Positions 22,058 through 48,921 of a stretch of DNA of 64,000 nt are shown here, piece by piece. This stretch comes from Promethearchaeia archaeon. GTDB lineage: Archaea > Asgardarchaeota > Lokiarchaeia > Sigyniarchaeales > SOKP01. A program made the position numbers and the translations under genes. Where the stretch lies: contig JAWOFX010000054.1 in the NCBI GenBank assembly GCA_046497275.1, positions 3,880 through 67,879 on the forward strand. The letters are read 5' to 3'. Below the pieces are notes generated by a model. The model was given only the letters and a program-made list of their open reading frames with translations, was not told the origin of the DNA and did not search any database. Position 1 is the first letter of the stretch. Every line of letters begins with the position of its first letter.

Positions 22058-22058
22058 A

Positions 22059-26178: not shown

Positions 26179-26249
26179 TGTTATCTTCTCTAATTTTTTA
26201 TTTTTAATCTATTTTATTATTTTATAAATTCTTTAATATTTTTATCAAT

Positions 26250-31340: not shown

Positions 31341-32780
31341 ATGAATACTATATTAATTTATCCACAGTTGGAATTTTCAAAAGCTCAAATACCCGCCCCA
31401 CCGTATTCTATTTTATTTATCGCAGATTATTTGAATAAAAGACATATAAATGTGAAGATTTTTGACCTTAGATTTGACAAAAATTTAGATGTTTTAAATG
31501 AAATATCCCGTAACGAATTGGAATATATAGGGATTTCAGTTATGACTGGACCACAAATAAAATATGCGTTAAGAATTTCAGAATTAATAAAAAAGAAATT
31601 TGACAAGATAAAAATTGTATGGGGTGGAATGCATCCAACAATAAGACCTAAACAAACCCTTAAGCATCCATTAATAGACTTAGTTGTCCGGGGAGAGGGA
31701 GAAAAAACATATTTTGAGCTAGTTTCCGGAAGAGAATTAGAGAAAATTGATGGATTGTCTTTTAAAAGAGGAAATAAAATAATTCATAATAAAGAAAGAA
31801 TCTTAATGAGTGATTCGGAAATCAATGAGTTAAGTATTCCTTGGGAACTAATGAAACCAAAATATTACATTAATAATCAAAACTTTAATCTTATCACTAG
31901 TAGAGGTTGTCCTTATCAATGTGCGTTTTGCTATAATAGTATGGCTAAGAATAGATGGAGAGGGTGGACTGTAAATAAATGTATACATGAATTCAATAAG
32001 GTTTTAAATTATGATGTTAAAAAAATTACTTTTTATGATGATAATTTCTTTGCAAATCCAAAAAGAATTAGCGGGATATTCAATTATTTAAAAGAACATG
32101 ACATCATTTGGAAGGCAGAAATTAGAGTCGATCGTTTAGATCTTCCTTTAGCAGAAGCTGCAAAAAAGGCAGGCTGCCGACAATTATTTTTTGGTGCAGA
32201 ATCTGGATCTGAAAGGCTATTAAAATTAATTATGAAAAATATAACCATTCAAGATATAATTAAGAGTGCTAAAATAACTAAAAAGGTCGGATTGGTGGCA
32301 GATTATAGTTGGATGGTTGGAATTCCAGGAGAAAAACAAATTGATAGAAAAAAAACAATTTCTTTGATTAAGAAAATTAAGAAAATTAATTCAGAATGTG
32401 AATTCTCTATAAAAATCCTTTATCCATATCCGAAAACCTTAATTTTTCAAGATGCTGTTAAACATGGTTTTAAGCCACCTGTTAATCTTATTGAATGGTC
32501 AAATGTGAGAAGGGAGCGGGCTCCAGATTATTTAGAAAACGGAAATAACCTTGAAATGATCTCATTAATAAGTGCAATTGTGGGAAGAAAAGTATTTGAA
32601 AAAAGTAACTTCCCAATTTTAAAAATATTGAAATTTTACGCCGATTTCAGATGGAAATATGAATTTTTTGATGTTGGTATTGAAAACTTTTTGTTCAAAA
32701 TCTCTCGAGGGATGATTAATGAATATATGAATAGAAGAGATACCAAAGGATACGATCAATTCTCTCAAAAAATAATTTGA
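31341..32780 (+). CDS. B12-binding-domain radical SAM protein
   Basis: N-terminal Rossmann-like cobalamin-binding-type domain (YIGISVMTGPQ...IVWGGMHPT), then ITSRGCPYQCAFCYN (CxxxCxxC). Confidence 0.75.
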   Translation: MNTILIYPQLEFSKAQIPAPPYSILFIADYLNKRHINVKIFDLRFDKNLDVLNEISRNELEYIGISVMTGPQIKYALRISELIKKKFDKIKIVWGGMHPTIRPKQTLKHPLIDLVVRGEGEKTYFELVSGRELEKIDGLSFKRGNKIIHNKERILMSDSEINELSIPWELMKPKYYINNQNFNLITSRGCPYQCAFCYNSMAKNRWRGWTVNKCIHEFNKVLNYDVKKITFYDDNFFANPKRISGIFNYLKEHDIIWKAEIRVDRLDLPLAEAAKKAGCRQLFFGAESGSERLLKLIMKNITIQDIIKSAKITKKVGLVADYSWMVGIPGEKQIDRKKTISLIKKIKKINSECEFSIKILYPYPKTLIFQDAVKHGFKPPVNLIEWSNVRRERAPDYLENGNNLEMISLISAIVGRKVFEKSNFPILKILKFYADFRWKYEFFDVGIENFLFKISRGMINEYMNRRDTKGYDQFSQKII

Positions 32781-32971: not shown

Positions 32972-33730
32972 ATGGTTAAAACGAATAGTAAAATAAAACG
33001 AATTGGGTTTTTTTTTTTAATGGTATTTCTTTTTCAAACAATTTTTATATTTTTTTCGTTGAATAATTTTCTAAATATTTTCTCTTCTCTTCAATATGCT
33101 TATATTTCTGGGAATTCCCTCTATATGCCTTTTATACCATATATTAATTTATTGTTATTTCTCCCTCCAAGATTTTTCCATCTTCACTTTACATTAGGTA
33201 ATTTAGTAGATATTCTCATATTAATCAGCCTTTCATCTGTTATAGATTCAATTTTCTACCATGGTATTTTAAAGAGATTTTTAGACGAAGAAATAGAGTT
33301 TGCCAAATATTCTTTATTGGACATCGATTTTGGATATAAAAATAAAAAAAATATTCAAGAACAAGGAATTTGGTTATTTCCCATGAATGATAAGATATTA
33401 GATAACAAAGGAAGAGAAAATACAATGGATATTGGAAAATTTTTGAACTTAAACGAGATGAAAAAATCTAGATCTTTTGCATTTAAATTCAAAAATGCGG
33501 TATATAGGAATAAAATTCGAAAATTTATATTCCTTCATAAAAATAACATTTGCTTACTTAGAAATGAAAAAAACATATTTCTTCATACTGGTTTAACCTA
33601 TTCCCATATAAAAACTATTTTTTCACTCCCTTTTGAAAATTTAAGATTTTCTCCAAAAATAAATTGTTTATTTTTAAAGAGCTTTCGAAAAACTTGGAGA
33701 ATGACAAGAAAATACAAACCAATTCAATGA
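32972..33730 (+). CDS. Phe/Asn/Lys-rich membrane-associated hypothetical protein; paralogue of 50713..51504
   Basis: A 252-codon open frame in extremely AT-rich DNA, which is unlikely by chance. N-terminal TM segments. Three blocks collinear with 50713 (SVIDSIFYHGILKRFLDEEIEF / IIESSIFFYIWEACMEDLDFY; IFSLPFEN / IFNSLPFN). Confidence 0.4.
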   Translation: MVKTNSKIKRIGFFFLMVFLFQTIFIFFSLNNFLNIFSSLQYAYISGNSLYMPFIPYINLLLFLPPRFFHLHFTLGNLVDILILISLSSVIDSIFYHGILKRFLDEEIEFAKYSLLDIDFGYKNKKNIQEQGIWLFPMNDKILDNKGRENTMDIGKFLNLNEMKKSRSFAFKFKNAVYRNKIRKFIFLHKNNICLLRNEKNIFLHTGLTYSHIKTIFSLPFENLRFSPKINCLFLKSFRKTWRMTRKYKPIQ

Positions 33731-33784: not shown

Positions 33785-35149
33785 ATGGATTGGACTGATG
33801 AAATAGAAAATCTGTTTCAGAAAATAATGAATTTAACTCCCGAAGATTTTCGTGCTTCAATAGCGCCAATGTGGCATGATGCTGCCGAAAAAACTGCAAG
33901 ATTAAGAAATTCGGGATTTGTAAGCGAAGATGATCTGTTAACTGCATTATTTGATATCACCCCGGAAGCATTCCAACCCGCAGTAGTGAAGGATTTAACT
34001 GAAATCGGTATAGATACTGATCGTTATATTAAGTTGTCTGAAATAAGAAAAACATATGCCAGAACATGGAATGAAATCAGTGGGGCATTTAAACCAGGAG
34101 TTTACCATTTTACAATGTACATTACAGATCGTTGTAATCAAAATTGTTTACATTGCGCAGCTTCCGTAACGGAAAATAGAGAAGAATTATCAATACAAAA
34201 ATGGATTCAAATTATAGAAAATATAGAACAAACTCTTAGAAAACGAGGTAGAAATGGCTGTTATATTTGGTTCGGTGGAGAACCAACTGTACGGAAGGAC
34301 TTGAAAGATTTAATCGAATATTGTGGAGAAAAGGGATATTATCAAGCAGTTGCAACGAATGGAATCCTATTTGATGAGAAATTAGCAAAATTATGTGCTA
34401 AAGTTAAAATGAGTCATGTCTTTATCAGTTTAGACAGTACAAAACCCGAACGGGCTGCAAAAATAAGAGGTCACCCTAAAGCTTATGAATCTGCTATTAA
34501 AGCGATAAAATTAGCTAATGAATATGGATTGTTTACTATTGGAAATGCCACAATTCAAAAAGAAAATTTTGATGAATTAGAAGAGATACAAAATTTATAT
34601 GATTCTTTAGGAGTTATTCCATATTTTAGAGCAGTTATTAAGAAAAGGAGTGCAGATAAAAATTGGGAAGAGATCGGACTTGATTATGATCAATTTCGAG
34701 AGTTTTACAATTTTAAATATAACAATGTCGTTGATGCGATTCGAAGTGGAAAAGCATCGAGTATAAACAAATTTTATACTTGGGATATGGTCCCTTTTAT
34801 GGAAATTCCTAAAAATGATGAAGAAAGAGCCTCTCTAGAATGGGGAGTTGGTTGTCAAGCATGCAGATCGATTTCAGGAATTGATATCAATGGCGATGTT
34901 TTTCCATGTGATTATCCGTCTGAATTAATCTTAGGCAATGTTCTTGAACAGAGCTTTGATGAAATTATGGAATCTGAGATTTTTAAAGCCATTCGAGACA
35001 GGAAAATTAAAGGTAAGTGTGCTGATTGCCATCATCTGGAATTATGTGGTGGTGGTTGCAGAATTCATGCGGAAAATGAAACTGGTGACTTTCTCGCTGC
35101 TAGCCCTTATTGTTGGCATATAATGGATCATAAACACAATGAAGAGTGA
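33785..35149 (+). CDS. Radical SAM/SPASM enzyme with N-terminal PCP_red-like helical module
   Basis: aa 1-84 are the shared module (MDWTDEIENLFQKIMNLTPEDFR...). Then ITDRCNQNCLHCA (CxxxCxxC) and GGEPT. C-terminal SPASM Cys set CQAC...NGDVFPC...GKCADCHHLELCGGGC...C. GAGGT RBS. Confidence 0.8.
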   Translation: MDWTDEIENLFQKIMNLTPEDFRASIAPMWHDAAEKTARLRNSGFVSEDDLLTALFDITPEAFQPAVVKDLTEIGIDTDRYIKLSEIRKTYARTWNEISGAFKPGVYHFTMYITDRCNQNCLHCAASVTENREELSIQKWIQIIENIEQTLRKRGRNGCYIWFGGEPTVRKDLKDLIEYCGEKGYYQAVATNGILFDEKLAKLCAKVKMSHVFISLDSTKPERAAKIRGHPKAYESAIKAIKLANEYGLFTIGNATIQKENFDELEEIQNLYDSLGVIPYFRAVIKKRSADKNWEEIGLDYDQFREFYNFKYNNVVDAIRSGKASSINKFYTWDMVPFMEIPKNDEERASLEWGVGCQACRSISGIDINGDVFPCDYPSELILGNVLEQSFDEIMESEIFKAIRDRKIKGKCADCHHLELCGGGCRIHAENETGDFLAASPYCWHIMDHKHNEE

Positions 35150-35160
35150 TGTGAAAAATT

Positions 35161-36585
35161 ATGGAATGGGATGAAAATACAAAAAAAATATTTCAGCAGA
35201 TTGTCAAACAAATACCAGGTGGTTTTAGATCCGCTGTTGAACCACAAATAGTGAAAGCAGCAACACAGAGATGTTTAGATAGAAATGAATCGTATATTAA
35301 TGAATCAGATGTTGTTTTAGGAATTTTTGATATTATTCCTGAAGCATTTAAAGCAATGATGGTTGAAGATCTGACCGCTTTAGGAATAGATGTCCAAAGA
35401 TATATAGAATTGAAGGAAATTAAAGATCGCCTTAAGCTTTCTTGGGATAAATTAGAAAAAGCATTTCATCCTGGGGTTATACATTTTGCAATGTACATAA
35501 CAGATAAATGTAATATGAAATGTATTCACTGTGCTGCAGATGATTATATACCCAGAAAAGAATTACCTAAAGAAAGATGGTTTGAGATTATTGAAAATTT
35601 GGAATCTGGTTTAAGAAATCATGGTCGAAGAGGTTGCTACATTTGGTTTGGAGGAGAACCTACTTTACGCAAAGATATAGGGGAGATCATGGAATTTTGT
35701 AATAAAAATGATTATTTTCATGCTATTATCACTAATGGAGTAGAATTCAATGAAGATTTTGCTAAAAAGTGTAAAGATAATAATATGAGCCATGTTTTTG
35801 TAAGTTTTGACAGTGCTGATCCTGAAAAAAATGATTATATACGTGGTTTTAATAATTCTCTTCCATATGCTAAAAGAGCAATAAAAAATTGTTTAAAATA
35901 TGGACTTTTTGTCTGTTCATCGATTACTGTGATGAAGCAAAATATAAATGAACTTGATGATCTTGATTCCTTATCTTTAAAATGGGGAGCACAACCATTT
36001 TTTAGACCAGTAGTTAAACAAAATCGGGCTGCAGAATATTGGGATGAAATCGGACTTAACAAAGAAGAATATCATAAACTATACAATTATAAATATGAGA
36101 GAGCCATCAAAAAAATAAGAAATGCAGAGGCAGGCAGTCTTCCGGCTTACGAAATTTACGAGATGATGCCTTTTATGGAATGTCCGAAAAATGACAAGGA
36201 ATTAAGTGCAATTGAATGGGGTGTGGGTTGCTTAGCATGCAGAACGATGATGGGGGTAGGTATCGATGGCACTATTTTTCCTGCTGGATATCCAACTAAA
36301 TTAACTCTTGGAAATGCTTTGAAGGATGATTTTGACGACGTTTTAGATTCACAACTTTATAAAGATATAAGAGATAGAAAAAAGATCAAGGGAAAATGTG
36401 CAAAGTGCCATCATTTAGATTTATGTGGAGGAGGTTGCCGAGTCACTGCTGAATATATCACAGGCGACTTTTTTGCTTCTTTTCCTTTCTGCTGGCATGA
36501 AAATGATCATGAACATAAGAATTGCTTGAATCATAAGCAAAGAGTTGAAACAGAAAATATTCTATTAAAAAAACCTATTGAATAG
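35161..36585 (+). CDS. Radical SAM/SPASM enzyme with N-terminal PCP_red-like module (tandem paralogue of 33785..35149)
   Basis: Collinear with the upstream gene. ITDKCNMKCIHCA. SPASM region CLAC...DGTIFPA...GKCAKCHHLDLCGGGC, where the GxxxxC cysteine is Ala (codon 36283-36285). Confidence 0.8.
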   Translation: MEWDENTKKIFQQIVKQIPGGFRSAVEPQIVKAATQRCLDRNESYINESDVVLGIFDIIPEAFKAMMVEDLTALGIDVQRYIELKEIKDRLKLSWDKLEKAFHPGVIHFAMYITDKCNMKCIHCAADDYIPRKELPKERWFEIIENLESGLRNHGRRGCYIWFGGEPTLRKDIGEIMEFCNKNDYFHAIITNGVEFNEDFAKKCKDNNMSHVFVSFDSADPEKNDYIRGFNNSLPYAKRAIKNCLKYGLFVCSSITVMKQNINELDDLDSLSLKWGAQPFFRPVVKQNRAAEYWDEIGLNKEEYHKLYNYKYERAIKKIRNAEAGSLPAYEIYEMMPFMECPKNDKELSAIEWGVGCLACRTMMGVGIDGTIFPAGYPTKLTLGNALKDDFDDVLDSQLYKDIRDRKKIKGKCAKCHHLDLCGGGCRVTAEYITGDFFASFPFCWHENDHEHKNCLNHKQRVETENILLKKPIE

Positions 36586-36615: not shown

Positions 36616-38031
36616 ATGCGAGTTTTATTGATTTCAGTAAGTAGAGAAATAGTCCATGTAATGACACCACCATTAGGTGAGTCTTATATTGCTTCCTATC
36701 TAATAAATAAGGGTCATCAAGTTAAAATATTAGACTTAACCCATAGTAATGATTCAGAGAATGATATCTCAAAAGCGATAAACAATTTTAACCCACAACT
36801 AATAGGAGTTTCTATTCGAAATATTGATTCAACAACATATCCTGGTAATTTGTTTTTTTACTTACCAGCAAGAAAAATTATTAAATATATTAAACATATC
36901 GCAGAACCAGATGTGCCGATAATACTAGGAGGAGCAGGATTTTCTATTTTTTCAGAAGAAATCCTAAAGGATTTAAATCATTCCCTTGGAGTAATTGGTG
37001 ATGGGGAACAAGTTTTTGCTGAAATCTGCAAAAGGGTAGAGAAACAAGAGGATTTAAGAAAAATAGAAAAAGGAATTTGCTATTTAGATAAAAATGGAGA
37101 ATATCATCAAAAAGCCCCTTGGCGAGTAAACAATCTCGATAAATTACCAATTCCGGCAAGACATTTAATCGATAATCAAGCATATTTAATCGATCCTTTA
37201 GATGTGAATGGAGAAATATGGGGTAATATTCAAACTAAGCGTGGTTGTCCAAAGAATTGTATTTATTGTAGTTATAAATATATAGAAGGTTCTAATGTGC
37301 GATATAGAAGTCCAAAAAGTGTTGCCGAAGAAATAGAAGTCCTAGTTAATAATTATGGAGTAAAAAACATATTTTTCGTGGACAGTGTGTTTAATTTAAG
37401 CTATGATCACCTAAAAAATACTTGCCAAAAAATAATAAAAAAAAATCTTGATTTAAATTGGGGCGCAAATTATGTACCTGATAAAAAATTTATCAATCTA
37501 TTACCTCTTATGAAAGAGAGTGGTGCAATTCATCTAGCAACTGGTATAGAATCATTATCAGGAGAAATGCTCAAGAGTATGAAAAAAGGAAGGAAAAGTG
37601 AAGATGCTATAATCACATCTAAAAGATGTTTTGAACTTGAAATAGAGCAATTAATCCATATAATAATAGGGGGTCCGAATGAAACACTTAAGACTGTTCG
37701 TGCTTCTTTAGATTTATTAGAAACAATTAAGAATTATCAAAATAAAATTTGGCAAGGTGATGGAGATGTTTTATTATTTATAGGAATTAGGATATACCCA
37801 CATACAGAAATCCAGGTTATAGCTGAAGAGGAAGGAATAATAGTTGAAGATGAGAATTTACTACGGCCGAAGTTCTATATATCTCCAAAAATTAAAGAAA
37901 TTGAACTTTTTCAAGTCGTTAGGAAATATTGTGCTAGAAATCCCAGATGGATGGCTCCAGGATTAGGAATAAACAATCCAGATGGTTTTGCAGAATTAAG
38001 TAATATGCAGTTTGCAAAATATCAAACTTGA
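36616..38031 (+). CDS. B12-binding-domain radical SAM protein
   Basis: MRVLLIS...LIGVSIRN...IILGGAGFS N-terminal domain, then QTKRGCPKNCIYCSY. Confidence 0.75.
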   Translation: MRVLLISVSREIVHVMTPPLGESYIASYLINKGHQVKILDLTHSNDSENDISKAINNFNPQLIGVSIRNIDSTTYPGNLFFYLPARKIIKYIKHIAEPDVPIILGGAGFSIFSEEILKDLNHSLGVIGDGEQVFAEICKRVEKQEDLRKIEKGICYLDKNGEYHQKAPWRVNNLDKLPIPARHLIDNQAYLIDPLDVNGEIWGNIQTKRGCPKNCIYCSYKYIEGSNVRYRSPKSVAEEIEVLVNNYGVKNIFFVDSVFNLSYDHLKNTCQKIIKKNLDLNWGANYVPDKKFINLLPLMKESGAIHLATGIESLSGEMLKSMKKGRKSEDAIITSKRCFELEIEQLIHIIIGGPNETLKTVRASLDLLETIKNYQNKIWQGDGDVLLFIGIRIYPHTEIQVIAEEEGIIVEDENLLRPKFYISPKIKEIELFQVVRKYCARNPRWMAPGLGINNPDGFAELSNMQFAKYQT

Positions 38032-38077: not shown

Positions 38078-39250
38078 ATGAATTGGGAACAAAAAATTAA
38101 AGAACTTTATAATAAAGTTGTAGAAAGAATACCAGAATCTGTCCGACCAATTATAAAGCCAGCATTAGCTGAAGCTGCTAAAGAAAAATGTACTGAACGT
38201 AATGGAACAGAGATATCTGAGGTCGATTTAGTTGTCGCCTTATTTGAAGTCACTCCTCCGGCATTTCAACCGACGATGATTGAAGATCTAAAAAAGCTTG
38301 GTGTAGATTATGATAGGTATTTAGCAAAAGTGAAAGGAGATTTTAAATGTAATAATGATCTGGAGATTATGGTTGAGGATACTCTAAAATTATGCAAAAT
38401 AGCTGGAATTAATGGAAATAAACCAGCTATTTGGAAGGTTATAAATGTTTATGAACCCTTTTTTAGAGGTTCTTCCATCTCTATAAGAACAACTACGAAA
38501 CCAATCGAAAAGAGAGATGTATCGGTAAGATATGTAGAACTTATGCATCCACACAAACCAGATGCGTATTCGACTGCTATTAATGAAGGACTTATTGAAA
38601 ATAATGGCCATATCATTCATGACGCTATTAAAGAGGTAATAAATAAATTTCAGATTATGGGATATGGAATCGATCTAGATGCAAGAAAAGGATTATCAAA
38701 AATATGGCCTTTTGTGGTACCAGGTTCTTTGGATCCAATATTTGACTTGGAAAATTATCCTGAAAGTGTAAAAAACTACAAAGCATATTTTGATAAACAT
38801 AAATTAAACATTTTTAGTCTTTTTGCTTTTGATTTCTGTCATTACACTACAAATATTTATATCATGCTTAAAAATCCTTCAGCTAATTCATTAGATGTAT
38901 CTAAAAAATTAGTAAGTGATTTAGGATTTAGTTTACCTTCGGATAAGGTTATGGAAAGTTGCGCTAAAGCAGCACATTTGAATTATACATTTAATTGGGA
39001 TGATGAAAAAGTACAAAGGCTTTGTTTTGGAGTTACATGTCAAAAATCTCAAGAAGTCCCTACAGATCTTCATCCTCTCATCAATAAATTTATCGAAAAA
39101 TCTCCATTTCAAAGCGAAATTCATAAATTTATATATGGAGTGACCTTTACTCCGGATGATATTTATTATAAAATCGAAAATGATTACAACGGTACGATGG
39201 TTGATTTTTTGTTGATGGGAGCTCAAGCAGGGATTAATTCATACAAATGA
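38078..39250 (+). CDS. ABBA-type aromatic prenyltransferase (NphB/CloQ/Orf2-like) fused to N-terminal PCP_red-like module
   Basis: aa 1-84 are the shared module. The remainder aligns, from my memory of NphB, in its C-terminal half: YTFNWDDEKVQRLCFGV vs TLNWETGKIDRLCFAV, and FIYGVTFTPDDIYYKIENDY vs LVYGLTLSPKEEYYKLGAYY. Confidence 0.6.
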   Translation: MNWEQKIKELYNKVVERIPESVRPIIKPALAEAAKEKCTERNGTEISEVDLVVALFEVTPPAFQPTMIEDLKKLGVDYDRYLAKVKGDFKCNNDLEIMVEDTLKLCKIAGINGNKPAIWKVINVYEPFFRGSSISIRTTTKPIEKRDVSVRYVELMHPHKPDAYSTAINEGLIENNGHIIHDAIKEVINKFQIMGYGIDLDARKGLSKIWPFVVPGSLDPIFDLENYPESVKNYKAYFDKHKLNIFSLFAFDFCHYTTNIYIMLKNPSANSLDVSKKLVSDLGFSLPSDKVMESCAKAAHLNYTFNWDDEKVQRLCFGVTCQKSQEVPTDLHPLINKFIEKSPFQSEIHKFIYGVTFTPDDIYYKIENDYNGTMVDFLLMGAQAGINSYK

Positions 39251-39285: not shown

Positions 39286-40431
39286 ATGAAATTTATTATT
39301 GAAGGAAATTATGATATAGGTTTATTGGATAAAATAAAAGAAGAAGATTTACCCATAAGTCATATAATTTTACATGTTCCGAAAAATCCAATAGGAAATA
39401 GTTCAATTTTCTTACCAAAAGACCAACCGTCTTTTAAAGAATTTGAAAACTATACAAATGCTGTTCAAGAATCTGGGTTTATTCCTATCGCAGGATTAGA
39501 TTCGACTTGTCAAGGTAATTTAGAAGCTCATATGCAACATTATGAGGCAACGAAAAATTTATTGAATTCTTTAGAAAATTTAAATTATAGAAATATTCTA
39601 GTTTCTGCTCCCAACAATGTTGGTTTCATTAAAGAAAATTATAGTGAAGTAAATATTTTTCTTTCATATTCACAATATGTGACATCTACCAATAGAGCTA
39701 AGATTTTTTTTGATATTGGAGTTGATTCTATTATTCTACACCCAGATATAAACAGATCCTTTGGAGCTTTAAGGAATTTCATTAAAATGAAAGAGAAAAA
39801 AACCAATTCATATGAATTTGTAATTCCTCTAAATATCGGGTGTAATTGGGGATGTATTTACTGGTATCAGCACCATAATCTACAAAGTCATAGAACAATC
39901 AATTCTCCCATATCAAATGAACAAATAAATATATCGGACATAGAAAATAGCTTTGATTATCCCATATTAAATTGTTGGAAGAATCGTCTCAAAAGTCCTC
40001 AAAATATATTGAAATCAGGTTGGATTAGCCCATATAATTTCTCCGAATATATTAATCTGGGATATGAAACATTTTATCTTTCGTCATATAAAATGTCAAA
40101 TGATTGTATAATTAATACACTGAAATCCTATCTAGAAGCAAATATCGATGATAACTTCTTAGAATTAATAAGCATACCTTATCCTTATGGAGAGTATTGG
40201 AATGATGAATATAAACTATCTTCTTTTTTTAAATTTGATTCGGACTTAATAAAAGAATTCTGTAAAAAAATACCATATGAAGAACATTATCCAAAAGAAA
40301 ATAAGATGATAAGTTATTGTAATGAATTTAGTAAAAGGATAAAGATAAAAGATCAAGAGCTTAGAGAAAAGGTTTTAGATATAATAAATCATAAGCTAAA
40401 TGAAATTGAAAAAGGATCTATTAAGAGGTAA
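39286..40431 (+). CDS. Divergent U32-like TIM-barrel protein (paralogue of 40437 and 49092)
   Basis: GAGGTGA RBS. Same layout as its neighbours (KFIIEGNYDIGLLDKI vs KLTVATNWDYNLIDEL; ...VSAPNNVGFIKENY...IILHPDINRSF...IPLNIGCNWGCIYWYQHH), but only two Cys in the cluster region. Confidence 0.45.
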   Translation: MKFIIEGNYDIGLLDKIKEEDLPISHIILHVPKNPIGNSSIFLPKDQPSFKEFENYTNAVQESGFIPIAGLDSTCQGNLEAHMQHYEATKNLLNSLENLNYRNILVSAPNNVGFIKENYSEVNIFLSYSQYVTSTNRAKIFFDIGVDSIILHPDINRSFGALRNFIKMKEKKTNSYEFVIPLNIGCNWGCIYWYQHHNLQSHRTINSPISNEQINISDIENSFDYPILNCWKNRLKSPQNILKSGWISPYNFSEYINLGYETFYLSSYKMSNDCIINTLKSYLEANIDDNFLELISIPYPYGEYWNDEYKLSSFFKFDSDLIKEFCKKIPYEEHYPKENKMISYCNEFSKRIKIKDQELREKVLDIINHKLNEIEKGSIKR

Positions 40432-40436: not shown

Positions 40437-42479
40437 ATGAGAATATCTTTAGCATGTAATTGGCGGATGGATTTACTACATAAACTGGAAAACGAGCCCG
40501 AATCGCTTAAAAATCTTTATGATTTTTATGGAACTTTCGACTTGAGTTTTACAGGTACAGGAAGACCTTTCTTTCTAATGGCAAAGAGAAATAAAGAAGA
40601 AATTGAGGAATTTATAAATAAAGTCCATGATTTAGGATTAAAATTCACTTGGTTATGGAATGGAATGTGTCTAGGATATCATATGTTCAATCAAGAAGAG
40701 CAAACAAAAGCTCTTAAGGAGCTAGATTGGTTAAGCGATCTTGATGTTGAATATCTTACTGTAGCAGATCCTTATTTGGCGAAATTTGCTAAAAAATATA
40801 GTCCAAATTTAAAATTGAAAGTATCCGTTATTTCAGAGGTAAATTCTCTCTCTAGAGCATTAGAATGGGAAAAAATAATTGGAAAAGAAGGAGTTATAAC
40901 GTTATCAATAATGTTAAACCGTAATTTTCCCCTTCTTAAAGAAATAAGAGAAAAGGTTGATTGTGATATAGAACTTCTCACAAATGATTGTTGTTTAAAT
41001 GAATGTCCGTTCAGATTTTTTCACTATTCCGAATGTTCCCATGCAAGTCAGTCGTATGATAAACTAGAAGGTTATTATAATGATTGGGCTACAATTGCAT
41101 GTCAGAATCAGAAAGTCTTCAAACCTAGACAAATTATCATGGCAAAATGGATCCAACCAAAAGACTTAGATAAATATATAAACATCAATATAGATTATTT
41201 TAAGATTTCTGGAAGGAGGTATGGAACAGCTTGGTTATATAGAGCTTTAAAATCCTATAGTAATAAATCTCATAAAGGAAACCTTGGTGAGATATTTAAT
41301 GGATATTCTTTCGTATCTGATCCCTTAGAATTAGCAGGAAATCAGTTTTCAGAATTTTCACTTAAACAAGAAAAAATGGGAGTGGACGCAGATAATCAAA
41401 GTATCATGCTGAGTATACCCGATTTCAATGCTCAATTGAAAGCAGAGGCACTATCAGACTTGATTGAGAAAATGCCTTTCAAAGGGGAAAAATGTGCTGA
41501 AAATTGTGGAGTAACATGTTTTTATTGCGACACATTTATAGATCGCGCATACTTTATCCCCTCTGGGAAATCCAATGATTCATATCGGAATTATATGAAA
41601 TTCCTCTATGATTATCTAAATAAAGGAGAAATGTTTGTACCCAAAGAAAAAAGAACACTAAAACCACCAACAAAGGAAACTGAATCCGACACGTATTTTG
41701 GGTTTAAATGGACTCCAGAAGCGGAAAAATTTCTTGAAGAGACGATGTTAATTGTACCAGAAAGTATGCAACTGGCTGCAAAAAAAGGGATCGGAATGAC
41801 GGCTGAGAGAACAGCAGAAAAAAAAAATCTAGATTATGTTGATAAAGATCTTATAATTTCTATAACGTTCCAATTAGTTCCTCAACCATTCAAACATGAT
41901 TTTTATGATTTTTGTCTGGAAAAAGGAATAGTTCCTCAGAAATATTTAAATGAGGATGAAATAAAATCAATCAAGTCTTTACCTTATGCTACAGACATTA
42001 TAAAAAAAACAGCTGAAGAACGAGGTAGACTTGTTGGAAGAAAACAACTTGAAAAAAAATCAAAAAAAAAACCAAAAGTGATACCAAATATGAATACAAA
42101 AAAAGAATGGGAAGCGTATTTAACTCGCTTCATGAAAGCATATAATGAGTTACCGGATGTAGAATCAATGTTAGAACCTGTAGCACCTCTTGTATTTCAA
42201 TATAAAATATCTGACAGACCAGAGATGAATTATTGGCAAAAGATTGAGAAAAATGAGATGAAGTGGGGAATGGGAGAATATGAAGGAGAGCAAACCCCAA
42301 CTGTGATCCATAAAACGAATTTTGACACAATAAAAAAAGTTAATTCTGGTGAAACAAATCCTATTGAAGCAACTATGGCTGGTACTTATGTCATTGAAGG
42401 AGATGCTACAAAACTTATGGCTTGTGCACCTCTTTTACCATTGAATGCTAAAGCTCATGAAAAAGCTATCAAAATGTGA
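40437..42479 (+). CDS. Multidomain protein: U32-like Fe-S TIM barrel, Cys4 motif, PCP_red-like module, Lys-rich linker, SCP2-like lipid-binding domain
   Basis: U32-like layout (ISLACNW..., LTVADPYLAKFAKKYSPNLKLKVSVISEVNS, IELLTNDCCLNECPFRFFHYSEC). CAENCGVTCFYC motif. Shared module at 41709-41948 (WTPEAEKFLEETMLIVPE...). C-terminal LVFQYKISDRPEMNYWQKIEKNE...TVIHKTNFDTIKKVNSGETNPIEATMAGTYVIEGDATKLM fits the SCP2 pattern (F.FKv.d....W.vd.k......d.ti....df..l..Gk.np..A...Gk..i.Gd). Confidence 0.6.
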   Translation: MRISLACNWRMDLLHKLENEPESLKNLYDFYGTFDLSFTGTGRPFFLMAKRNKEEIEEFINKVHDLGLKFTWLWNGMCLGYHMFNQEEQTKALKELDWLSDLDVEYLTVADPYLAKFAKKYSPNLKLKVSVISEVNSLSRALEWEKIIGKEGVITLSIMLNRNFPLLKEIREKVDCDIELLTNDCCLNECPFRFFHYSECSHASQSYDKLEGYYNDWATIACQNQKVFKPRQIIMAKWIQPKDLDKYININIDYFKISGRRYGTAWLYRALKSYSNKSHKGNLGEIFNGYSFVSDPLELAGNQFSEFSLKQEKMGVDADNQSIMLSIPDFNAQLKAEALSDLIEKMPFKGEKCAENCGVTCFYCDTFIDRAYFIPSGKSNDSYRNYMKFLYDYLNKGEMFVPKEKRTLKPPTKETESDTYFGFKWTPEAEKFLEETMLIVPESMQLAAKKGIGMTAERTAEKKNLDYVDKDLIISITFQLVPQPFKHDFYDFCLEKGIVPQKYLNEDEIKSIKSLPYATDIIKKTAEERGRLVGRKQLEKKSKKKPKVIPNMNTKKEWEAYLTRFMKAYNELPDVESMLEPVAPLVFQYKISDRPEMNYWQKIEKNEMKWGMGEYEGEQTPTVIHKTNFDTIKKVNSGETNPIEATMAGTYVIEGDATKLMACAPLLPLNAKAHEKAIKM

Positions 42480-42557: not shown

Positions 42558-44024
42558 CGGTGGTCGGTTAGCCGACATTATTTGTGAATTATCCCACCAC
42601 CCCCATGGATTTTTGCTCCACTCTAAGAAACAACCCTCTAAGGACATCTTGGTTCTGGTTAAGATTCCAGCTGCGAGAGCTCATTTTTCGAGTTCGCTCA
42701 AGTTGAATGCGCTTCCTATTCATTTTCCAAGAGTTATAAAGGAGTATTCGTGCAAGCATATCGAGATATCTTACGTTATCGTGGTTAGATCGCCATCGCC
42801 GATTAATCCGATTTAAGTCGGAAAATCCAGTTTCGATAAGCCATCGACGGCGATAAAAGAGGGATGTGCGGGATGCCCACGAGCTTTCCTTCCCTTTTGG
42901 TTTCTCGGTTGTCATTATCGTAAAAACCCTATGATATGCATCCTTCAAGGAGAGAATCCCTCTCCGAACATCTCTTTTAATACCTCGGAGAGAGAAGCCT
43001 TGTTTTGCCCGTATTATGAGGTTAACATCGCATTTAAATTGTCGCTTTGCTGCGGTAGCAGTAGAAAATGTATACCTTCGCACTCGTCCCGCTTTTCCCT
43101 CCAAGTATTCCTTAATAAATTGTTTAATTTTTTTATATTGTTTCGCAGGCATGAGTACATTGCCGCCTTTTTGTTTTATATCGTCTATCAATTCAGCTCT
43201 ATAAAACTCACGATCCATTAACACATATTTTAATTCAAATCCCAATTCGAGAAGATGAGCCAAAAAGGTTTTGATTATTGGAATCTTAGATTGTCCATTT
43301 GCCACATGCTCCAATCCTGCATAGAGATGAACATTCCGGGAAAGTAATGAAAAACCGAGATAATGACGCATCTTTTTGGTTCCCTTTTGTCGATTAGTAC
43401 CCTTAATCATTTTATCCTCACGAGACCCGAAATATGGATGTTCTGTAAAATCAATTAATACGTTCACCTTTTTTGAGATGAGTTTTGACTTGTATGCTTC
43501 TTTTAATTGTTCATCAAGACATTCACGTAAAAGTTTGCGCGCTTTCTTGATGCCAATTCCGCGTAAATACTTGTTCACTTCGGTTTGGTGTGGAACATAT
43601 CTCTTTTTACGCCCGTCTGAAAAGATTTTCCGTCTTCCCTTTTTATGACTCAGTATGTACGCATTAAGCTGCTCGCTGGTGTCGTGTATGGATCTACCTA
43701 TAATTTCTGAAAAGAAGAATACTCTTAAAAAGTCTGAATCCTCATATTTAGCGTTTTTTGCCCTTTTGACCCGCCATGTGCGAGAGATGACAACATCACA
43801 AAACTTTTTATAAAATGAGAGAATATTATCATTAGAAAGAAGTGATTTGATTCCTAACTTTTGAATAGAAGTAGGAAATATTTCTTGTAATCGCATACAT
43901 GAATATAATCACTTCTTTCTTTTTAATTTTACGGTTATCCATCAGAGGAATAAAATCCTAAAAAATAATGTTTCATAATACCAATTGAGAGGCAGTATTT
44001 CATAGGATGGGCCAGAGACCATCG
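42558..44024 (-). mobile_element. IS4-family-like insertion sequence (boundaries approximate)
   Basis: Visibly higher G+C than its flanks. Single DDE transposase gene. Candidate imperfect terminal inverted repeats cggtggtc (42558-42565) / gaccatcg (44017-44024). No target-site duplication identified. Confidence 0.55.
42589..43896 (-). CDS. DDE transposase, IS4 family-like
   Basis: 435 aa. LIDFTEHPYFG (D), YVLMDREFY (D), YRRRWLIETGFSDLNR (Y-x2-R-x3-E signature). Confidence 0.75.
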   Translation of the reverse strand: MRLQEIFPTSIQKLGIKSLLSNDNILSFYKKFCDVVISRTWRVKRAKNAKYEDSDFLRVFFFSEIIGRSIHDTSEQLNAYILSHKKGRRKIFSDGRKKRYVPHQTEVNKYLRGIGIKKARKLLRECLDEQLKEAYKSKLISKKVNVLIDFTEHPYFGSREDKMIKGTNRQKGTKKMRHYLGFSLLSRNVHLYAGLEHVANGQSKIPIIKTFLAHLLELGFELKYVLMDREFYRAELIDDIKQKGGNVLMPAKQYKKIKQFIKEYLEGKAGRVRRYTFSTATAAKRQFKCDVNLIIRAKQGFSLRGIKRDVRRGILSLKDAYHRVFTIMTTEKPKGKESSWASRTSLFYRRRWLIETGFSDLNRINRRWRSNHDNVRYLDMLARILLYNSWKMNRKRIQLERTRKMSSRSWNLNQNQDVLRGLFLRVEQKSMGVVG

Positions 44025-44185: not shown

Positions 44186-45445
44186 ATGATATCTAATGAA
44201 TTAGTGAAAAATAATAAAATTAGGAACATCATTAATACAGATTTTAAAGATACTCTCTTTATTCAACATATAAGAGAAGTTATAAACGATGCGAAAGTAA
44301 AAAATAAGATATATAGAAGATTAATTGAAAATAATAATTTTAATATTGATGATTTGAATAAAATTGAGGATCTTTCTACGATTCCTTATTTGAATGCTTT
44401 TGATTTCAAAGAATCAAATCAAATGTATAAAAAGTTTTTAAAAATTCCTTTCAATTCACCTGAATTTGATTCTTGGAATGTATCTTCTTGTACTTCTGGC
44501 AATCCTTCTTTGGTGGGCAGGTCTAAATATGATAATGAATTATTGGCAAGCATGACTATAAAATGCATTTATGATTTTATACCGATTCCTGAAAATGAGT
44601 GGTTCAATACACTTTCATTTAATTTTGCTCCTAACATCAAATTTTTAAATAGAATCGCTCTTAGATATACTAAAGAGAGACCGGTTAAGTTATATAGTAG
44701 TAATTTGCACAAAATATCCACTCGGATGTCGGATCCTTATTTTTTAGTTAAATTTAAACTGTTAAAAGCTATTAAAGAAATAATCGTTAACAGAAGTTTA
44801 GTTGGGGCATTTAATATCGATTCTAAATTTGTGATTAAAAAAATCAATAAGAATTTAAAAAAACCAGAAGATAAAAGAAAATATGTTTCATTTGGCGGCA
44901 GTCTCCAATTAGTAAATAATTTTATGAACGGATTTTTAGAAGTGAACGGTCTCAGATATAATTTAAAAGATAGTGTAGTTAATTTTGGGGGAGGCGGCTG
45001 GGATGGTCATAAAAGCCAATTAAAATATCCTCCTATAGAAAAAACTAAGTTTGTTAATGATTGTGAGAAATATCTTGGAACGCCCCCCGAAAATATCACA
45101 GATATGTACGGATTTACTGAAACACCTATAGTGTTTGGATCACATTGGTCTGAAAAACGCCAAGATTTCATAATGCATTGCCCACCTCAAGCTAGAATAA
45201 TTATAAGGGATATGAAAACAAAAGATCCTTTAACCAGTCTTGGAGACATTGGTTTTCTTGAAGTGATAACTCCGTTTGGAGTAAATGCATCGCTAAATCA
45301 TGCAATCCTAATTGATGATGTTGTTGAACTTATTTCGAAAAATAGGTGCCCCGAATGTGGATATGAAGGAGATACTTTTAGAGTATTAGGAAGATTAGAA
45401 AATCCTGAAGGGTTAGGATGTTCTTCAATAGTAGAATGGATATAA
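44186..45445 (+). CDS. LuxE-like acyl-protein synthetase / adenylate-forming enzyme
   Basis: SSCTSGNPS (degenerate SSGTTG), NFGGGGWDG (GGGWK-like), MYGFTETP, C-terminal FRVLGRLENPEGLGCS (GR....e.RGCS-like). Paralogue of 52579..53880. Confidence 0.55.
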   Translation: MISNELVKNNKIRNIINTDFKDTLFIQHIREVINDAKVKNKIYRRLIENNNFNIDDLNKIEDLSTIPYLNAFDFKESNQMYKKFLKIPFNSPEFDSWNVSSCTSGNPSLVGRSKYDNELLASMTIKCIYDFIPIPENEWFNTLSFNFAPNIKFLNRIALRYTKERPVKLYSSNLHKISTRMSDPYFLVKFKLLKAIKEIIVNRSLVGAFNIDSKFVIKKINKNLKKPEDKRKYVSFGGSLQLVNNFMNGFLEVNGLRYNLKDSVVNFGGGGWDGHKSQLKYPPIEKTKFVNDCEKYLGTPPENITDMYGFTETPIVFGSHWSEKRQDFIMHCPPQARIIIRDMKTKDPLTSLGDIGFLEVITPFGVNASLNHAILIDDVVELISKNRCPECGYEGDTFRVLGRLENPEGLGCSSIVEWI

Positions 45446-45588: not shown

Positions 45589-45906
45589 TTAAGGGCTCCA
45601 ATATCTAATAAACCGCACTAAACCTATAGACATTAGAATTACAGTAAAAATAACTGCAACGGAACATAAAACTAGTCCCACAATTGCAAAAACTTTTTTA
45701 TCATCCCCAGTTATAGCTACTATTCCCATTATATCGCCAAGAACAGCTATTATAAGAACTATGATACCAATGGTGACCGAAAAGATTATTACCATCGGCT
45801 CTCCATAAACTACAGCAGGAATATAAGAAAGAATTCCAATAGTCCATAATATGGCATTTGCAATAATCCCTAATATCATTGAAGCGATACCAAAACCATT
45901 TTCCAT
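45589..45906 (-). CDS. Small membrane protein (3-4 TM)
   Basis: 105 aa, Ile/Gly/Val-rich TM helices. The only minus-strand gene inside the cluster apart from the IS. Confidence 0.45.
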   Translation of the reverse strand: MENGFGIASMILGIIANAILWTIGILSYIPAVVYGEPMVIIFSVTIGIIVLIIAVLGDIMGIVAITGDDKKVFAIVGLVLCSVAVIFTVILMSIGLVRFIRYWSP

Positions 45907-46133: not shown

Positions 46134-47276
46134 ATGATAAAAATATCATTTAAACCGAAAAACCAAAAGAATAATGTAATTCCAATTTTGGAATATTATG
46201 GTTATGTTATAGCCAAATTAGTTGATTCATTTTCTCTGTTTTCGACTTTTATTGATAAATTGGAAACATTATATATAAGAAAAACAATTGGTACTATAGA
46301 GATTAATAGCCCAATCTTTATAACTGGAATTCCAAGATCTGGCACAACTATCACTCTTGAAATGTTAGCCAAACATCCTGAAGTAGCTTCTCATAAATAT
46401 AAGCATCTTCTCATGCCTTATATTCCATATTGGTTTAGTAACGCAATAAATAAATTGAAAATTTCTTTAGAACCAACTGAAAGAATACATCAAGATAGAA
46501 TATTCATTAATCAAGATAGTCCGGAAGCTGTAGAAGAGATTTTTTGGCAAAGATTCTTTGAAAATGTTCATAATGAAAGTGATTCAAATATTTTAGACAA
46601 TAATACTAAGAATGAAGAATTCGAAAATTTTTATAAGAATCATATTAAAAAGTTGCTAATAAGTCAAGAATCTTCAAGATATATCGCAAAAAATAATTAT
46701 AATTTAACAAGATTGGAATATTTAATCAAAATTTTTCCAGATGTTAAATTTGTAATACTAATACGTAATCCTATAAATCAAATTGCTTCAATTATTAAAC
46801 AACAAAAATCATTCATTAAAATGGAATCAATCTCACCTCTATTATCAGAGTGGAATAATATTCTTGGCCATCATGAATTTGGAAATCATTCTAGTTTAAT
46901 TAATTTGAATGACTATGAATTAGTTAAAAAAATTAGAAGTTTATTAAAGAATAAAAATTCATATGTAAAAGGATGGGGTTATTATTGGACTTCTCTTTAT
47001 GATCATGTCATGAAAATTATAAAAATTAATAAAAAAGTCAAAAAAGCTAGTTTAATTGTACGATATGAAGATTTATGCGAATCCTCATCATCAACAATCG
47101 ATAAAATCCTTGATCACACCAACCTACCACATGAGCAGTTTGATCATACGAAAAAGTATTATGTTAGATGTCTAGAGAAACCTTCTTATTATAAACCACA
47201 TTTTTCGGATATAGAAATTGAAAATATATTAAAAATCACAAGACCAACAGCGAAAAAATATGGATATCAATTATAA
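46134..47276 (+). CDS. Sulfotransferase family protein (PAPS-dependent type)
   Basis: 5'-PSB-like loop ITGIPRSGTTITLEML and 3'-PB-like RNPINQIAS. Confidence 0.65.
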   Translation: MIKISFKPKNQKNNVIPILEYYGYVIAKLVDSFSLFSTFIDKLETLYIRKTIGTIEINSPIFITGIPRSGTTITLEMLAKHPEVASHKYKHLLMPYIPYWFSNAINKLKISLEPTERIHQDRIFINQDSPEAVEEIFWQRFFENVHNESDSNILDNNTKNEEFENFYKNHIKKLLISQESSRYIAKNNYNLTRLEYLIKIFPDVKFVILIRNPINQIASIIKQQKSFIKMESISPLLSEWNNILGHHEFGNHSSLINLNDYELVKKIRSLLKNKNSYVKGWGYYWTSLYDHVMKIIKINKKVKKASLIVRYEDLCESSSSTIDKILDHTNLPHEQFDHTKKYYVRCLEKPSYYKPHFSDIEIENILKITRPTAKKYGYQL

Positions 47277-47457: not shown

Positions 47458-48921
47458 TTGAAAAAATATAATATACTATTTATCCACCCCCCAATCAATT
47501 CCAGCTCGATTCAAGATGAAAGTCCTCATAAAAGACGCGGAAATTATATATTTATTCCCATGGGCGTTTTTGCTATCGCTGACCTATTGGAAAGAGAGGG
47601 TTTTAGTGTCAAAATAATAAATTTTCCTTTAGAGAAATTCCTTAATTCTAAATGGAATTTAAAAGATTTTTTAAAAAACCTTGATTTCGATATTTGCGCA
47701 ATTGATCTACATTGGATCCACAATTCTTACGGTGCTTTATATATTTCTAAGGTAGTTAAAGAAATTGATAAAAATATCAAAGTAATTTTTGGAGGTTATA
47801 GTGCTTCATATTTCCATAAACAGATTTTGAAATATTATCAAACAGTAGATGGAATTATTAGAGGAGATGGTGAAATTCCATTTTTAGAATATACTAGATG
47901 CCATCTAAGAAACAAAAATTTTGATAAAGTTCCAAATTTGACTTATAGAAATTCATCAGGCATGATAAAAGTTAATCCAATTTCCTATATTGCAAAATCT
48001 TTAGAAGATTTAAATTTTTCTAATATATCTTTAATGCACAATGCGGAGTCATATTTAAATAATAGCAGAAAAATTATGGGAATATCTTATAATGTTTCTG
48101 TTGGAAGAGGTTGTCCATTTAATTGTCCGTTTTGTGCAGGAGGAAAAAAGGCTCAAGAAAAATATTCTTGTCGAACAGAGGTAATTCTAAGGAATCCACG
48201 AAGAGTTGTTGAAGATATTTTATTTATTTATCATAATTATAATATTGATAATTTCTTTTTTGGACATGGAACTTATCCAAAAACCCTTAAGTACTGGGAG
48301 AAATTGTTTTCTATTATCAGAGAAGAAAATATCGATATTTCTGCTGATTTAGAAATTTGGAGATTACCATTTCCTAAAAAAATGGTTCAGAGTTTTTATG
48401 AGACATTCAATAATAAAAAATCTTCGTTAAGTATCTCCCCAAGAACAATCTCTTCTTCTGTCCAGAAGAAAATTGCGAAATTAGATGATCCAACATTTAT
48501 TTTCAGAAAAAGTGAAATTTTCAAGCTTATTGAAGACACAATTCAATACCGAATCCCATTAAGAATATGGTTGACAATTGGATTTCCTTTTCAAAATAGA
48601 AGAGAAATTATAAAAGATATTATGTTTGCTATAGAATGTGTATTAAAGTATGGAAAATCGAAAAAAAATCCTATAGCAATTATGAGTGAACCGTACTTTA
48701 TATTCCCAGGCTCCCCCGTATTTGAGGATCCTGAAAAATATGGAATTAAATTAAAATTAACTAATTTTCCTGAAATTGTAAATGCATTTAAGAATTCTAA
48801 AATTTCATTTTTTTATAACTTGACAAATTATGATAATAAATATTTTTCAAGTAATTTTATAAGAAAATTGAATCTGCTATTTTTCTTAATTGTAGCACCA
48901 ATGTTCCTTACAAGTGGTTAA
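47458..48921 (+). CDS. B12-binding-domain radical SAM protein
   Basis: TTG start. N-terminal Rossmann-like domain (ICAIDLHW...VIFGGYSAS), then VSVGRGCPFNCPFCAG. Confidence 0.7.
   Translation: MKKYNILFIHPPINSSSIQDESPHKRRGNYIFIPMGVFAIADLLEREGFSVKIINFPLEKFLNSKWNLKDFLKNLDFDICAIDLHWIHNSYGALYISKVVKEIDKNIKVIFGGYSASYFHKQILKYYQTVDGIIRGDGEIPFLEYTRCHLRNKNFDKVPNLTYRNSSGMIKVNPISYIAKSLEDLNFSNISLMHNAESYLNNSRKIMGISYNVSVGRGCPFNCPFCAGGKKAQEKYSCRTEVILRNPRRVVEDILFIYHNYNIDNFFFGHGTYPKTLKYWEKLFSIIREENIDISADLEIWRLPFPKKMVQSFYETFNNKKSSLSISPRTISSSVQKKIAKLDDPTFIFRKSEIFKLIEDTIQYRIPLRIWLTIGFPFQNRREIIKDIMFAIECVLKYGKSKKNPIAIMSEPYFIFPGSPVFEDPEKYGIKLKLTNFPEIVNAFKNSKISFFYNLTNYDNKYFSSNFIRKLNLLFFLIVAPMFLTSG

Follow-up and report, generated by a model that had tools for sequence, protein, structure and literature searches.

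The window analysed here is a stretch of 64,000 nucleotides (nt) from contig JAWOFX010000054.1 of a Promethearchaeia archaeon (assembly GCA_046497275.1), and its gene at 38078–39250 encodes a domain of the ABBA (Orf2/NphB-type) prenyltransferase (PT) family fused to a small helical module. Sequence comparisons and a structure prediction indicated that the encoded protein is very probably a catalytically competent, soluble ABBA aromatic PT. On balance, we also think it probable that the PT is active and opens an O2-independent pathway, similar to that of UbiT, UbiU and UbiV, to which it commits an aromatic acceptor. The homology of the PT is already captured by an automatic NCBI name; its setting, archaeal, fused to the module and within a cluster of anaerobic radical enzymes, is new, and the surrounding pathway may be of a new kind. 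The gene and its two parts are as follows:

38078..39250, + strand: module–ABBA prenyltransferase fusion gene, ATG start, 390 amino acids (aa), complete open reading frame (ORF)
38078..38341, + strand: five-helix DUF2621-like module of the PT (aa 1–88)
38360..39211, + strand: ABBA (Orf2/NphB-type) PT-barrel domain (aa 95–378, PF11468)

Family, predicted active site and host of the prenyltransferase

An earlier note on this DNA had recognised the C-terminal ~300 aa as an Orf2/NphB/CloQ-type ABBA PT, quoting two short blocks, YTFNWDDEKVQRLCFGV (aa 303–319) and FIYGVTFTPDDIYYKIENDY (aa 351–370). Pfam, matches in the Protein Data Bank (PDB), the structural model and the conserved site all agreed with this assignment. 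The PTase_Orf2 profile (PF11468) matched strongly, with an E-value of 9.9e-48 and 163.4 bits against a cut-off of 22, and the similarity reached beyond the two blocks, with aa 95–378 aligned to profile positions 3–283 of 287. A phmmer search against all PDB chains returned ABBA PTs only, among them AmbP1 (E 2.5e-34), FamD1/AmbP3 (~1.6e-33), EpzP (1.2e-28), NphB (8.6e-19) and CloQ (4e-6). With a profile of 84 homologues as the query, the corresponding E-values were 1.7e-57 (AmbP1), 3e-57 (AmbP3/FamD1), 1.4e-51 (EpzP), 3e-37 (NphB) and 2e-19 (CloQ). The likeness to NphB and CloQ therefore held at the level of the family, but the nearest solved relatives were instead the indole PTs AmbP3/FamD1 and AmbP1 and the phenazine PT EpzP.

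The PT protein was modelled with AlphaFold2 from an alignment of 84 sequences, and all structures described here for the window are predictions. The model (mean predicted local distance difference test score of 95.2, predicted template modelling (TM) score of 0.92) begins with five helices at the N-terminus; ten beta strands, with helices between them, come next within aa 133–369, and no transmembrane segment is present. When the model was compared with the PDB by Foldseek, the first 41 matches were all ABBA chains, and barrels of the DMATS type followed later at E-values of ~1e-5 to 1e-3. AmbP3 matched with an E-value of 1.4e-27, a target-normalised TM score of 0.92 and a root mean square deviation (rmsd) of 2.2 Å, and the TM scores were 0.88–0.90 for AmbP1, 0.83–0.85 for EpzP, 0.81–0.86 for NphB and 0.78–0.82 for CloQ. 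The predicted fold is thus a 10-strand PT barrel with a TM score of about 0.8 to NphB and CloQ, the two enzymes with which the earlier note had proposed to compare it. A regular-expression search of the PT protein found no (N/D)DxxD motif, as expected for ABBA enzymes.

The predicted diphosphate site was located by hidden Markov model (HMM) alignment to NphB. In this alignment K208, N259, Y261, R314, Y363 and K365 of the PT fell on NphB K119, N173, Y175, R228, Y282 and K284, respectively, W210 fell on Y121, and D147 fell on the Mg-binding residue D62. The roles of these NphB residues were reportedly described by Kuzuyama et al. in 2005. The position of NphB Y216 is occupied by N302, with Tyr found there only in a paralogous Asgard clade, and R151 aligned with an Arg of AmbP1, AmbP3 and EpzP. 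The predicted diphosphate set (R151, K208, N259, Y261, R314, Y363 and K365) was invariant or nearly so in the 84 homologues, so that the basic residues predicted to bind the diphosphate are conserved by alignment to NphB and homologues; residues invariant in the 84 sequences were R146, R151, Y152, D162, K208, W210, Y261, R314, K365, E367, D369 and Y370. Because the profile match, the predicted barrel, the conserved residues and the lack of an (N/D)DxxD motif all agree with it, membership of the ABBA family is indicated by every sequence and predicted-fold criterion.

The host of the PT gene was confirmed as an Asgard archaeon, and the archaeal setting stated in the earlier note stands. A 100% identical database protein carries the name 'MAG: aromatic prenyltransferase [Promethearchaeati archaeon]' (MAG, metagenome-assembled genome), and ~115 further orthologues of 388–390 aa (48–76% identity, a start of M-E/N-W being common) came from MAGs labelled Promethearchaeota/Lokiarchaeota or Thor-, Odin-, Hermod- or Hodarchaeota. 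Family-specific peptide patterns, which divergent members, those of cultured Asgard strains included, could escape, were used to scan a single genome for each GTDB species. The scan gave 34 loci, and these were in Asgard or unclassified-archaeon MAGs bar one in a Thermoplasmata MAG; the closed genomes of the cultured Asgard archaea Prometheoarchaeum syntrophicum MK-D1 and Lokiarchaeum ossiferum were not among them. The genes that flank related loci were also archaeal: on a 498-kb Asgard contig the locus is flanked by arrays of Arf/Ras/Roc GTPase genes, and on a closed 3.58-Mb Thermoplasmata chromosome the genes for L31e, L39e, S19e and eIF-6 are nearby. Several genomes had two or three PT paralogues.

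As all sources are MAGs, the gene could in principle be a bacterial contaminant in an archaeal MAG, or the PT domain could be a non-catalytic ligand-binding scaffold. We regard these explanations as scarcely credible. The complete diphosphate-binding set is invariant in homologues, which speaks against a scaffold, and more than 30 independent assemblies of Asgard archaea, with contigs of up to 498 kb that bear Asgard signature genes, carry the gene, as does the closed Thermoplasmata chromosome. In addition, the 30% GC content of the PT gene matches the window, which has ~28–30% GC throughout.

Aromatic prenylation in archaea is attributed to membrane UbiA enzymes. A review from 2020 placed the ABBA enzymes in bacteria, fungi and plants (PMC7839719), and our literature search found no paper on archaeal ABBA PTs or on this cluster. 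To that extent the earlier note was right to call the enzyme unfamiliar in archaea, but the NCBI pipeline name 'aromatic prenyltransferase' already exists.

The gene cluster around the prenyltransferase

The PT gene is part of a cluster of ~17 genes (31341–53880), several of which encode radical S-adenosylmethionine (rSAM) enzymes or U32 proteins with predicted iron–sulphur (Fe-S) sites. Its other genes are:

31341..32780, + strand: B12-binding rSAM enzyme, encoded at the cluster's upstream end
32972..33730, + strand: multi-pass membrane protein of 252 aa, poorly conserved, no family match
33785..35149, + strand: module (aa 1–89)–rSAM/SPASM enzyme, AhbD/NirJ-like under all curated cut-offs
35161..36585, + strand: second module–rSAM/SPASM enzyme
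36616..38031, + strand: B12-binding rSAM enzyme directly upstream of the PT gene, probable methylase
39286..40431, + strand: U32-like protein, weak Pfam U32 match, homologous to the other U32 genes
40437..42479, + strand: U32 Fe-S protein of 680 aa with an internal module and a C-terminal SCP2 domain
42589..43896, − strand: DDE transposase of an insertion sequence (IS), Pfam DDE_Tnp_1
44186..45445, + strand: LuxE/PaaK-like adenylating ligase
45589..45906, − strand: 105-aa membrane protein
46134..47276, + strand: sulfotransferase
47458..48921, + strand: B12-binding rSAM enzyme, TIGR04190-like
49092..50492, + strand: third U32 Fe-S protein, 466 aa, with a C-terminal module (nt 50259–50486); Pfam U32 E-value 1.4e-14
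50713..51504, + strand: second membrane protein, 263 aa, no family match
51530..52480, + strand: CDP-alcohol phosphatidyltransferase, archaetidylinositol-phosphate-synthase-like
52579..53880, + strand: second LuxE/PaaK-like adenylating ligase

The three U32 proteins have invariant sets of four cysteines (C75, C186, C190 and C230 in the U32-like protein of 39286–40431), two of them have a second, CxxxCxxxCxxC set, and Fe-S binding is predicted on this basis. Matches of the 680-aa protein to Pfam comprised Peptidase_U32 (E 3.3e-9) and SCP2 (E 8.6e-5, 23.3 bits against a cut-off of 21.3), the latter at nt 42153–42437 (aa 573–667), downstream of the internal module at nt 41703–41969. In the rSAM/SPASM enzyme of 33785–35149 the CxxxCxxC motif and the SPASM cysteines were 100% conserved, and its gene was syntenic in nearly all related loci. 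For the B12-binding rSAM enzyme next to the PT (36616–38031), the nearest families were TIGR04072, named 'lipid biosynthesis B12/rSAM', with 287 bits where the cut-off is 360, and BzaD, both sub-threshold. The membrane protein of 32972–33730 had counterparts of 30–42% identity at the same cluster position in 9 loci. It and the membrane protein of 50713–51504 are of low complexity and resemble each other by eye, with a transmembrane block followed by an acidic 'E/D-x-D-F' stretch; the two may be a membrane component of the pathway. A Pfam search of the window found no UbiA, UbiE or UbiG, and scans of it for tRNA genes and Rfam families returned nothing.

BLAST comparison of 37 loci revealed a gene order that has been kept in 34 genomes: B12-binding rSAM, (membrane protein), SPASM, SPASM, B12-binding rSAM, PT, (U32-like), U32/SCP2 and U32–module. 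CDP-alcohol transferase, LuxE-like and sulfotransferase genes were also found near the cluster in other genomes of this set. A compact paralogous cluster of five genes, in the order SPASM–PT–U32–U32/SCP2–SPASM (e.g., L027, 1654–9045), occurs in the same Asgard genomes, and in clusters of the Thermoplasmata type the PT is accompanied by two or three SPASM enzymes or by a U32 pair. The SCP2 domain varied in form across genomes, occurring as a stand-alone gene of 125–132 aa, as an rSAM/SPASM fusion and as a U32 fusion. In most other genomes the U32–module gene directly follows the U32–SCP2 gene and the TIGR04190-like B12-binding rSAM gene is upstream of the SPASM genes. The window differs in that both lie ~5–7 kb downstream, past the IS, a LuxE-like gene and the sulfotransferase gene, and since the IS sits where the order departs from that of other genomes, an IS-associated rearrangement is suggested.

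Several other regions of the window drew our attention. Just downstream of the cluster, five paralogues of ~190–210 aa, each with a terminal zinc ribbon and at least one with a membrane domain (54020–56315, − strand, and 60301–61886, + strand), flank a sugar-modifying block (56487–60158) of a hexapeptide transferase, a GT2 glycosyltransferase, a polysaccharide deacetylase and an NTP transferase; a similar block adjoins the cluster in another locus (L040). A three-gene operon at 17673–22556 encodes proteins like hydantoinase A, hydantoinase B and the acetone carboxylase gamma subunit. Its GC content of 36–37% and strong positive GC skew stand out from surroundings of ~28% GC, and it may be a recently acquired carboxylase system of the acetone/acetophenone type. 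At 25114–28424 (− strand) a gene for an ADP-forming acetyl-CoA synthetase of 724 aa (CoA-binding, succinyl-CoA-ligase-like and ATP-grasp domains) adjoins one for a DRTGG/AAA_26 protein that is like the N-terminal part of phosphotransacetylase, a pair typical of fermentative energy conservation in Asgard archaea.

The DUF2621-like module and its prenyltransferase subfamily

In the model of the PT protein the module consists of five helices (aa 5–16, 23–40, 48–58, 61–73 and 78–86). A module profile search found exactly five copies in the window: at the N-termini of the two rSAM/SPASM enzymes (33785–35149 and 35161–36585) and of the PT (38078–39250), inside the U32–SCP2 protein (40437–42479), and at the C-terminus of the third U32 protein (49092–50492). 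Profile comparison indicated that the module copies are mutually homologous. DUF2621 (PF11084) was matched by 10 of 11 module copies, with a best E-value of 7.7e-8 and with alignment to profile positions ~55–137. The copy of the PT itself scored 19.3 bits, under the gathering cut-off of 27.7, and that of 49092–50492 passed the same cut-off with 29.2 bits. A literature search found no paper on DUF2621.

The N-terminal fusion of the PT to a cluster-wide module, which the earlier note had singled out as unusual, is real, but the pairing is unique neither to archaea nor to this cluster: the ABBA subfamily that it defines is found in anaerobic bacteria as well. An exhaustive HMMER search found 184 ABBA clusters among 1.84 billion cluster representatives. 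A near-full-length PT domain was present in 124 sequences, representatives and references taken together, and the module was N-terminal to it in 22 and C-terminal in 3. The module is also C-terminal to the PT in the Thermoplasmata-type homologues P0116, P0117, P0119 and P0120, and one Odinarchaeota PT protein had no module. On a Clostridia-like contig (L038) a separate 90-aa module gene (7702–7974, E 5e-21) lies directly upstream of a 298-aa PT. All module-linked PTs grouped in one clade of a rough neighbour-joining tree, without support values, in which most representative sequences carry no taxonomy; the bacterial members of this clade include a 380-aa protein of Acetivibrio clariflavus DSM 19732 (WP_014254177.1) and tandem copies from Deltaproteobacteria MAGs. 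The module–PT partnership is therefore old and specific to one ABBA subfamily, in which it takes three topologies: N-terminal, C-terminal and separate gene.

Stand-alone versions of the module were also sought. The profile search gave 15 short proteins, and those inspected (P0130, P0124, P0133, P0126 and P0128) looked like fragments or frameshift-split fusion genes, P0130 being an example of such genes. With the bacterial 90-aa module gene as a query, only the gene itself was found.

Some loci with module-associated PTs were of interest in their own right. A NUDIX hydrolase gene directly follows the PT in Clostridia, both on the uncultured contig L038 (7702–9530), which bears SLH/dockerin genes, and in Acetivibrio clariflavus DSM 19732 (L042, 8001–9716). 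The module could be studied in such a compact system of two to three genes, one of whose hosts is a cultured anaerobe. In GCA_040960975.1 (L039, 199–8556) a module–PT fusion of 377 aa and 37% identity (P0144) is accompanied by several S-adenosylmethionine-dependent methyltransferases, an ABC exporter and a terpene cyclase like squalene-hopene cyclase/AstC, and this locus looks like a secondary-metabolite cluster of the meroterpenoid type. Duplicate tandem or near-tandem module–PT genes were seen in an Asgard MAG (L027, 3086–4261 and 9042–10217) and in a Deltaproteobacteria MAG (L041, 8647–11158), which suggests successive prenylations or differing acceptor specificities.

A W..E....L...P..vR pattern in the module led us to suspect a link to PCP_red (PF08369), the C-terminal domain of BchB. 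We rejected this link as unsupported: only 1 of 11 copies matched PCP_red (E 0.078), and PDB searches with the profile, with the best candidate copy and with Foldseek did not return BchB or ChlB. In another reading, the substrate is a tetrapyrrole or a related cofactor and the module acts as a lid that covers it, as the PCP_red domain of BchB does. The rSAM/SPASM enzymes do score best against AhbD, NirJ and AhbC, and the B12-binding rSAM enzymes match BchE weakly, as one module copy does PCP_red. However, these scores are far under the family cut-offs (e.g., 129–149 bits against 500), BchB/ChlB was recovered from the PDB by neither profile nor single-sequence search, the window has no tetrapyrrole genes, and neither SCP2 domains nor ABBA chemistry fit such a substrate, so that we consider this reading very improbable.

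The repetition of one small domain on several tailoring enzymes also follows the logic of the recognition element (RRE) of ribosomally synthesised and post-translationally modified peptides (RiPPs). If the cluster were a RiPP pathway, the module would recognise a leader peptide and the PT would prenylate a Trp or Tyr side chain. The rSAM/SPASM enzymes, which are typical peptide maturases and gave many weak NCBIfam matches to such maturases, are consistent with this, as are the nearest solved PTs, which act on indoles. The RiPP reading is weakened by the lack of a conserved small ORF, by the all-helical module and by the SCP2 domains. Across the 34 loci no conserved ORF of 50–130 aa was found inside the cluster, shorter ORFs not having been screened; the module is all-alpha rather than a PqqD-type winged helix, and gave no PqqD match; lipid-binding domains of the SCP2 type form an integral part of the cluster; and cyanobactin-type peptide PTs were missing from the Foldseek matches at E ≤ 0.001. 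A RiPP pathway thus seems improbable.

Proposed pathway and closest known systems

Based on the conserved synteny, the intact PT site, and the repeated shuffling of SCP2 domains and modules between enzymes of the same types, we propose that the cluster encodes one pathway with a lipophilic intermediate. In this pathway the PT barrel would bind a prenyl diphosphate through R151, K208, N259, R314 and K365, aided by Y261 and Y363, and would then ionise it, with the prenyl cation moving to an electron-rich aromatic acceptor in the barrel lumen. This would be the committing step of an O2-independent pathway in Asgard archaea and some Thermoplasmata. The U32 Fe-S proteins would hydroxylate the prenylated aromatic without O2, as UbiU and UbiV do, the B12-binding rSAM enzymes would methylate it, and the rSAM/SPASM enzymes may carry out further radical chemistry on the side chain or the ring. 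The SCP2 domains would keep the lipophilic intermediate in solution, and the module on the PT, rSAM/SPASM and U32 proteins could let every enzyme engage that same intermediate.

For the module itself, binding or presentation of the substrate or of its carrier is our leading, if tentative, suggestion. Such a pathway would yield an aromatic lipid that is prenylated, hydroxylated and methylated, and by analogy it is possible, though we hold this with somewhat less assurance, that this product is most simply a quinone-like redox lipid. We are more doubtful of the full scheme of a largely soluble, O2-independent pathway in which an ABBA enzyme replaces UbiA and the DUF2621 module serves the whole pathway as the domain by which an intermediate held by SCP2 is recognised or docked. 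If it were true, the module would be a small-molecule counterpart of the RRE.

Several observations weigh against an O2-independent pathway of this kind. No protein of the cluster reached a curated NCBIfam cut-off (the 105-aa membrane protein was outside the family-library searches); in particular, the U32 proteins gave no UbiU or UbiV match in NCBIfam, their best U32 match being TrhP with 33.7 bits against 534. A Pfam search that included the remaining genes of the window found no gene for a prenyl-diphosphate synthase or an aromatic precursor in the cluster. No solved-structure relative of the module was found by sequence or by Foldseek against the PDB (best Foldseek E 0.28). The bacterial module–PT contexts lack rSAM, U32 and SCP2 genes; therefore the module cannot be only a dock for the archaeal pathway. 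Its primary association is with this PT subfamily, and that it has spread further, onto rSAM/SPASM and U32 enzymes, is a trait of the archaeal clusters. Lastly, the CDP-alcohol transferase, LuxE-like ligase, sulfotransferase and glycosyltransferase neighbours fit a polar lipid or glycolipid at least equally well.

These recurrent neighbours make a polar lipid or glycolipid of the membrane a serious rival to a redox quinone as the compound on which the cluster works, although we consider this reading rather unlikely. The PT would then prenylate a phenolic or nucleophilic head-group precursor, the B12-binding rSAM and rSAM/SPASM enzymes would modify isoprenoid chains, and the CDP-alcohol transferase, LuxE-type ligases, sulfotransferase and glycosyltransferases would build the polar head. 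The rSAM enzyme beside the PT is closest, at 287 bits, to a family named for lipid biosynthesis (TIGR04072), and SCP2 domains bind lipids generally. In many genomes the cluster is again accompanied by the archaetidylinositol-phosphate-synthase-like transferase and by LuxE-like ligases, and a sulfotransferase, a GT2 enzyme, a polysaccharide deacetylase and a hexapeptide transferase flank it both here and in L040. However, the minimal clusters of Thermoplasmata and the paralogous mini-cluster of Asgard archaea are without head-group genes, and the flanking envelope genes may merely reflect inherited synteny. To our knowledge, all characterised Orf2-type ABBA enzymes use aromatic acceptors, which also counts against a polar-lipid role.

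These findings are of wider significance. An ABBA enzyme is widely conserved in the archaea that are closest to eukaryotes, and it is central to a cluster of radical-SAM, cobalamin, Fe-S U32 and SCP2 proteins. This suggests that Lokiarchaeia and their relatives, whose membrane and electron-carrier chemistry is poorly known, have a lipid or cofactor that has so far gone unrecognised. The data also point to a new accessory domain, DUF2621, as a genetically well-supported partner of one ABBA subfamily. Finally, these ideas are readily testable, as the cultured Acetivibrio clariflavus DSM 19732 carries a module–PT fusion and a compact archaeal cluster of five genes exists; ABBA enzymes usually express well.

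Among known systems, the best matches to the PT were the hapalindole/ambiguine indole PTs AmbP3/FamD1 and AmbP1 (PDB 5Y7C, 5YNT and 5YK9), with 26–28% identity, TM scores of 0.88–0.92 and rmsd values of 2.1–2.6 Å over ~290 residues. They share with it the barrel and the R-Y/K/N-x-Y/R/K diphosphate site, including R151. Unlike the archaeal PT, these enzymes of aerobic secondary metabolism in cyanobacteria consist of one domain only, at a length of ~300 aa, and have neither a DUF2621 module nor an rSAM/U32/SCP2 context. The Streptomyces enzymes NphB (Orf2), EpzP/PpzP and CloQ belong to the same PF11468 family, but the archaeal PT is only 18–23% identical to them, and they come from actinobacterial antibiotic or pigment clusters, in contrast to the conserved cluster that surrounds the archaeal PT.

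What links the module to the RRE (PqqD-like) concept is the recurrence of one small recognition domain across several tailoring enzymes of a pathway. The two differ in that the RRE is a winged helix-turn-helix, whereas the module has five helices and a lipid-oriented SCP2 context, and no precursor peptide of 50–130 aa was found.

The closest comparison for the cluster as a whole is with UbiT, UbiU and UbiV. In that system (Pelosi et al. 2019, PMC6747719) the U32 proteins UbiU and UbiV pair as a heterodimer, and in each of them four conserved cysteines bind a [4Fe-4S] cluster. The SCP2 protein UbiT has been proposed to hold prenylated intermediates, and a UbiT–UbiU fusion exists in Zymomonas; this O2-independent hydroxylation in ubiquinone biosynthesis was found only in ubiquinone-producing Proteobacteria (PMC6747719). 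As no UbiU or UbiV model matches it, the archaeal U32 set is not orthologous to these proteins, and by analogy the archaeal cluster works like the UbiTUV system at most and is not a member of it. It further differs in that its PT is a soluble ABBA enzyme and not a membrane UbiA, and in that its methylases would be B12-binding rSAM enzymes and not UbiE/UbiG. What the archaeal cluster shares with UbiT–UbiU–UbiV is an adjacent U32 pair, four-cysteine motifs, an SCP2 domain and an SCP2–U32 fusion, and both systems would act on a prenylated aromatic under anoxia.

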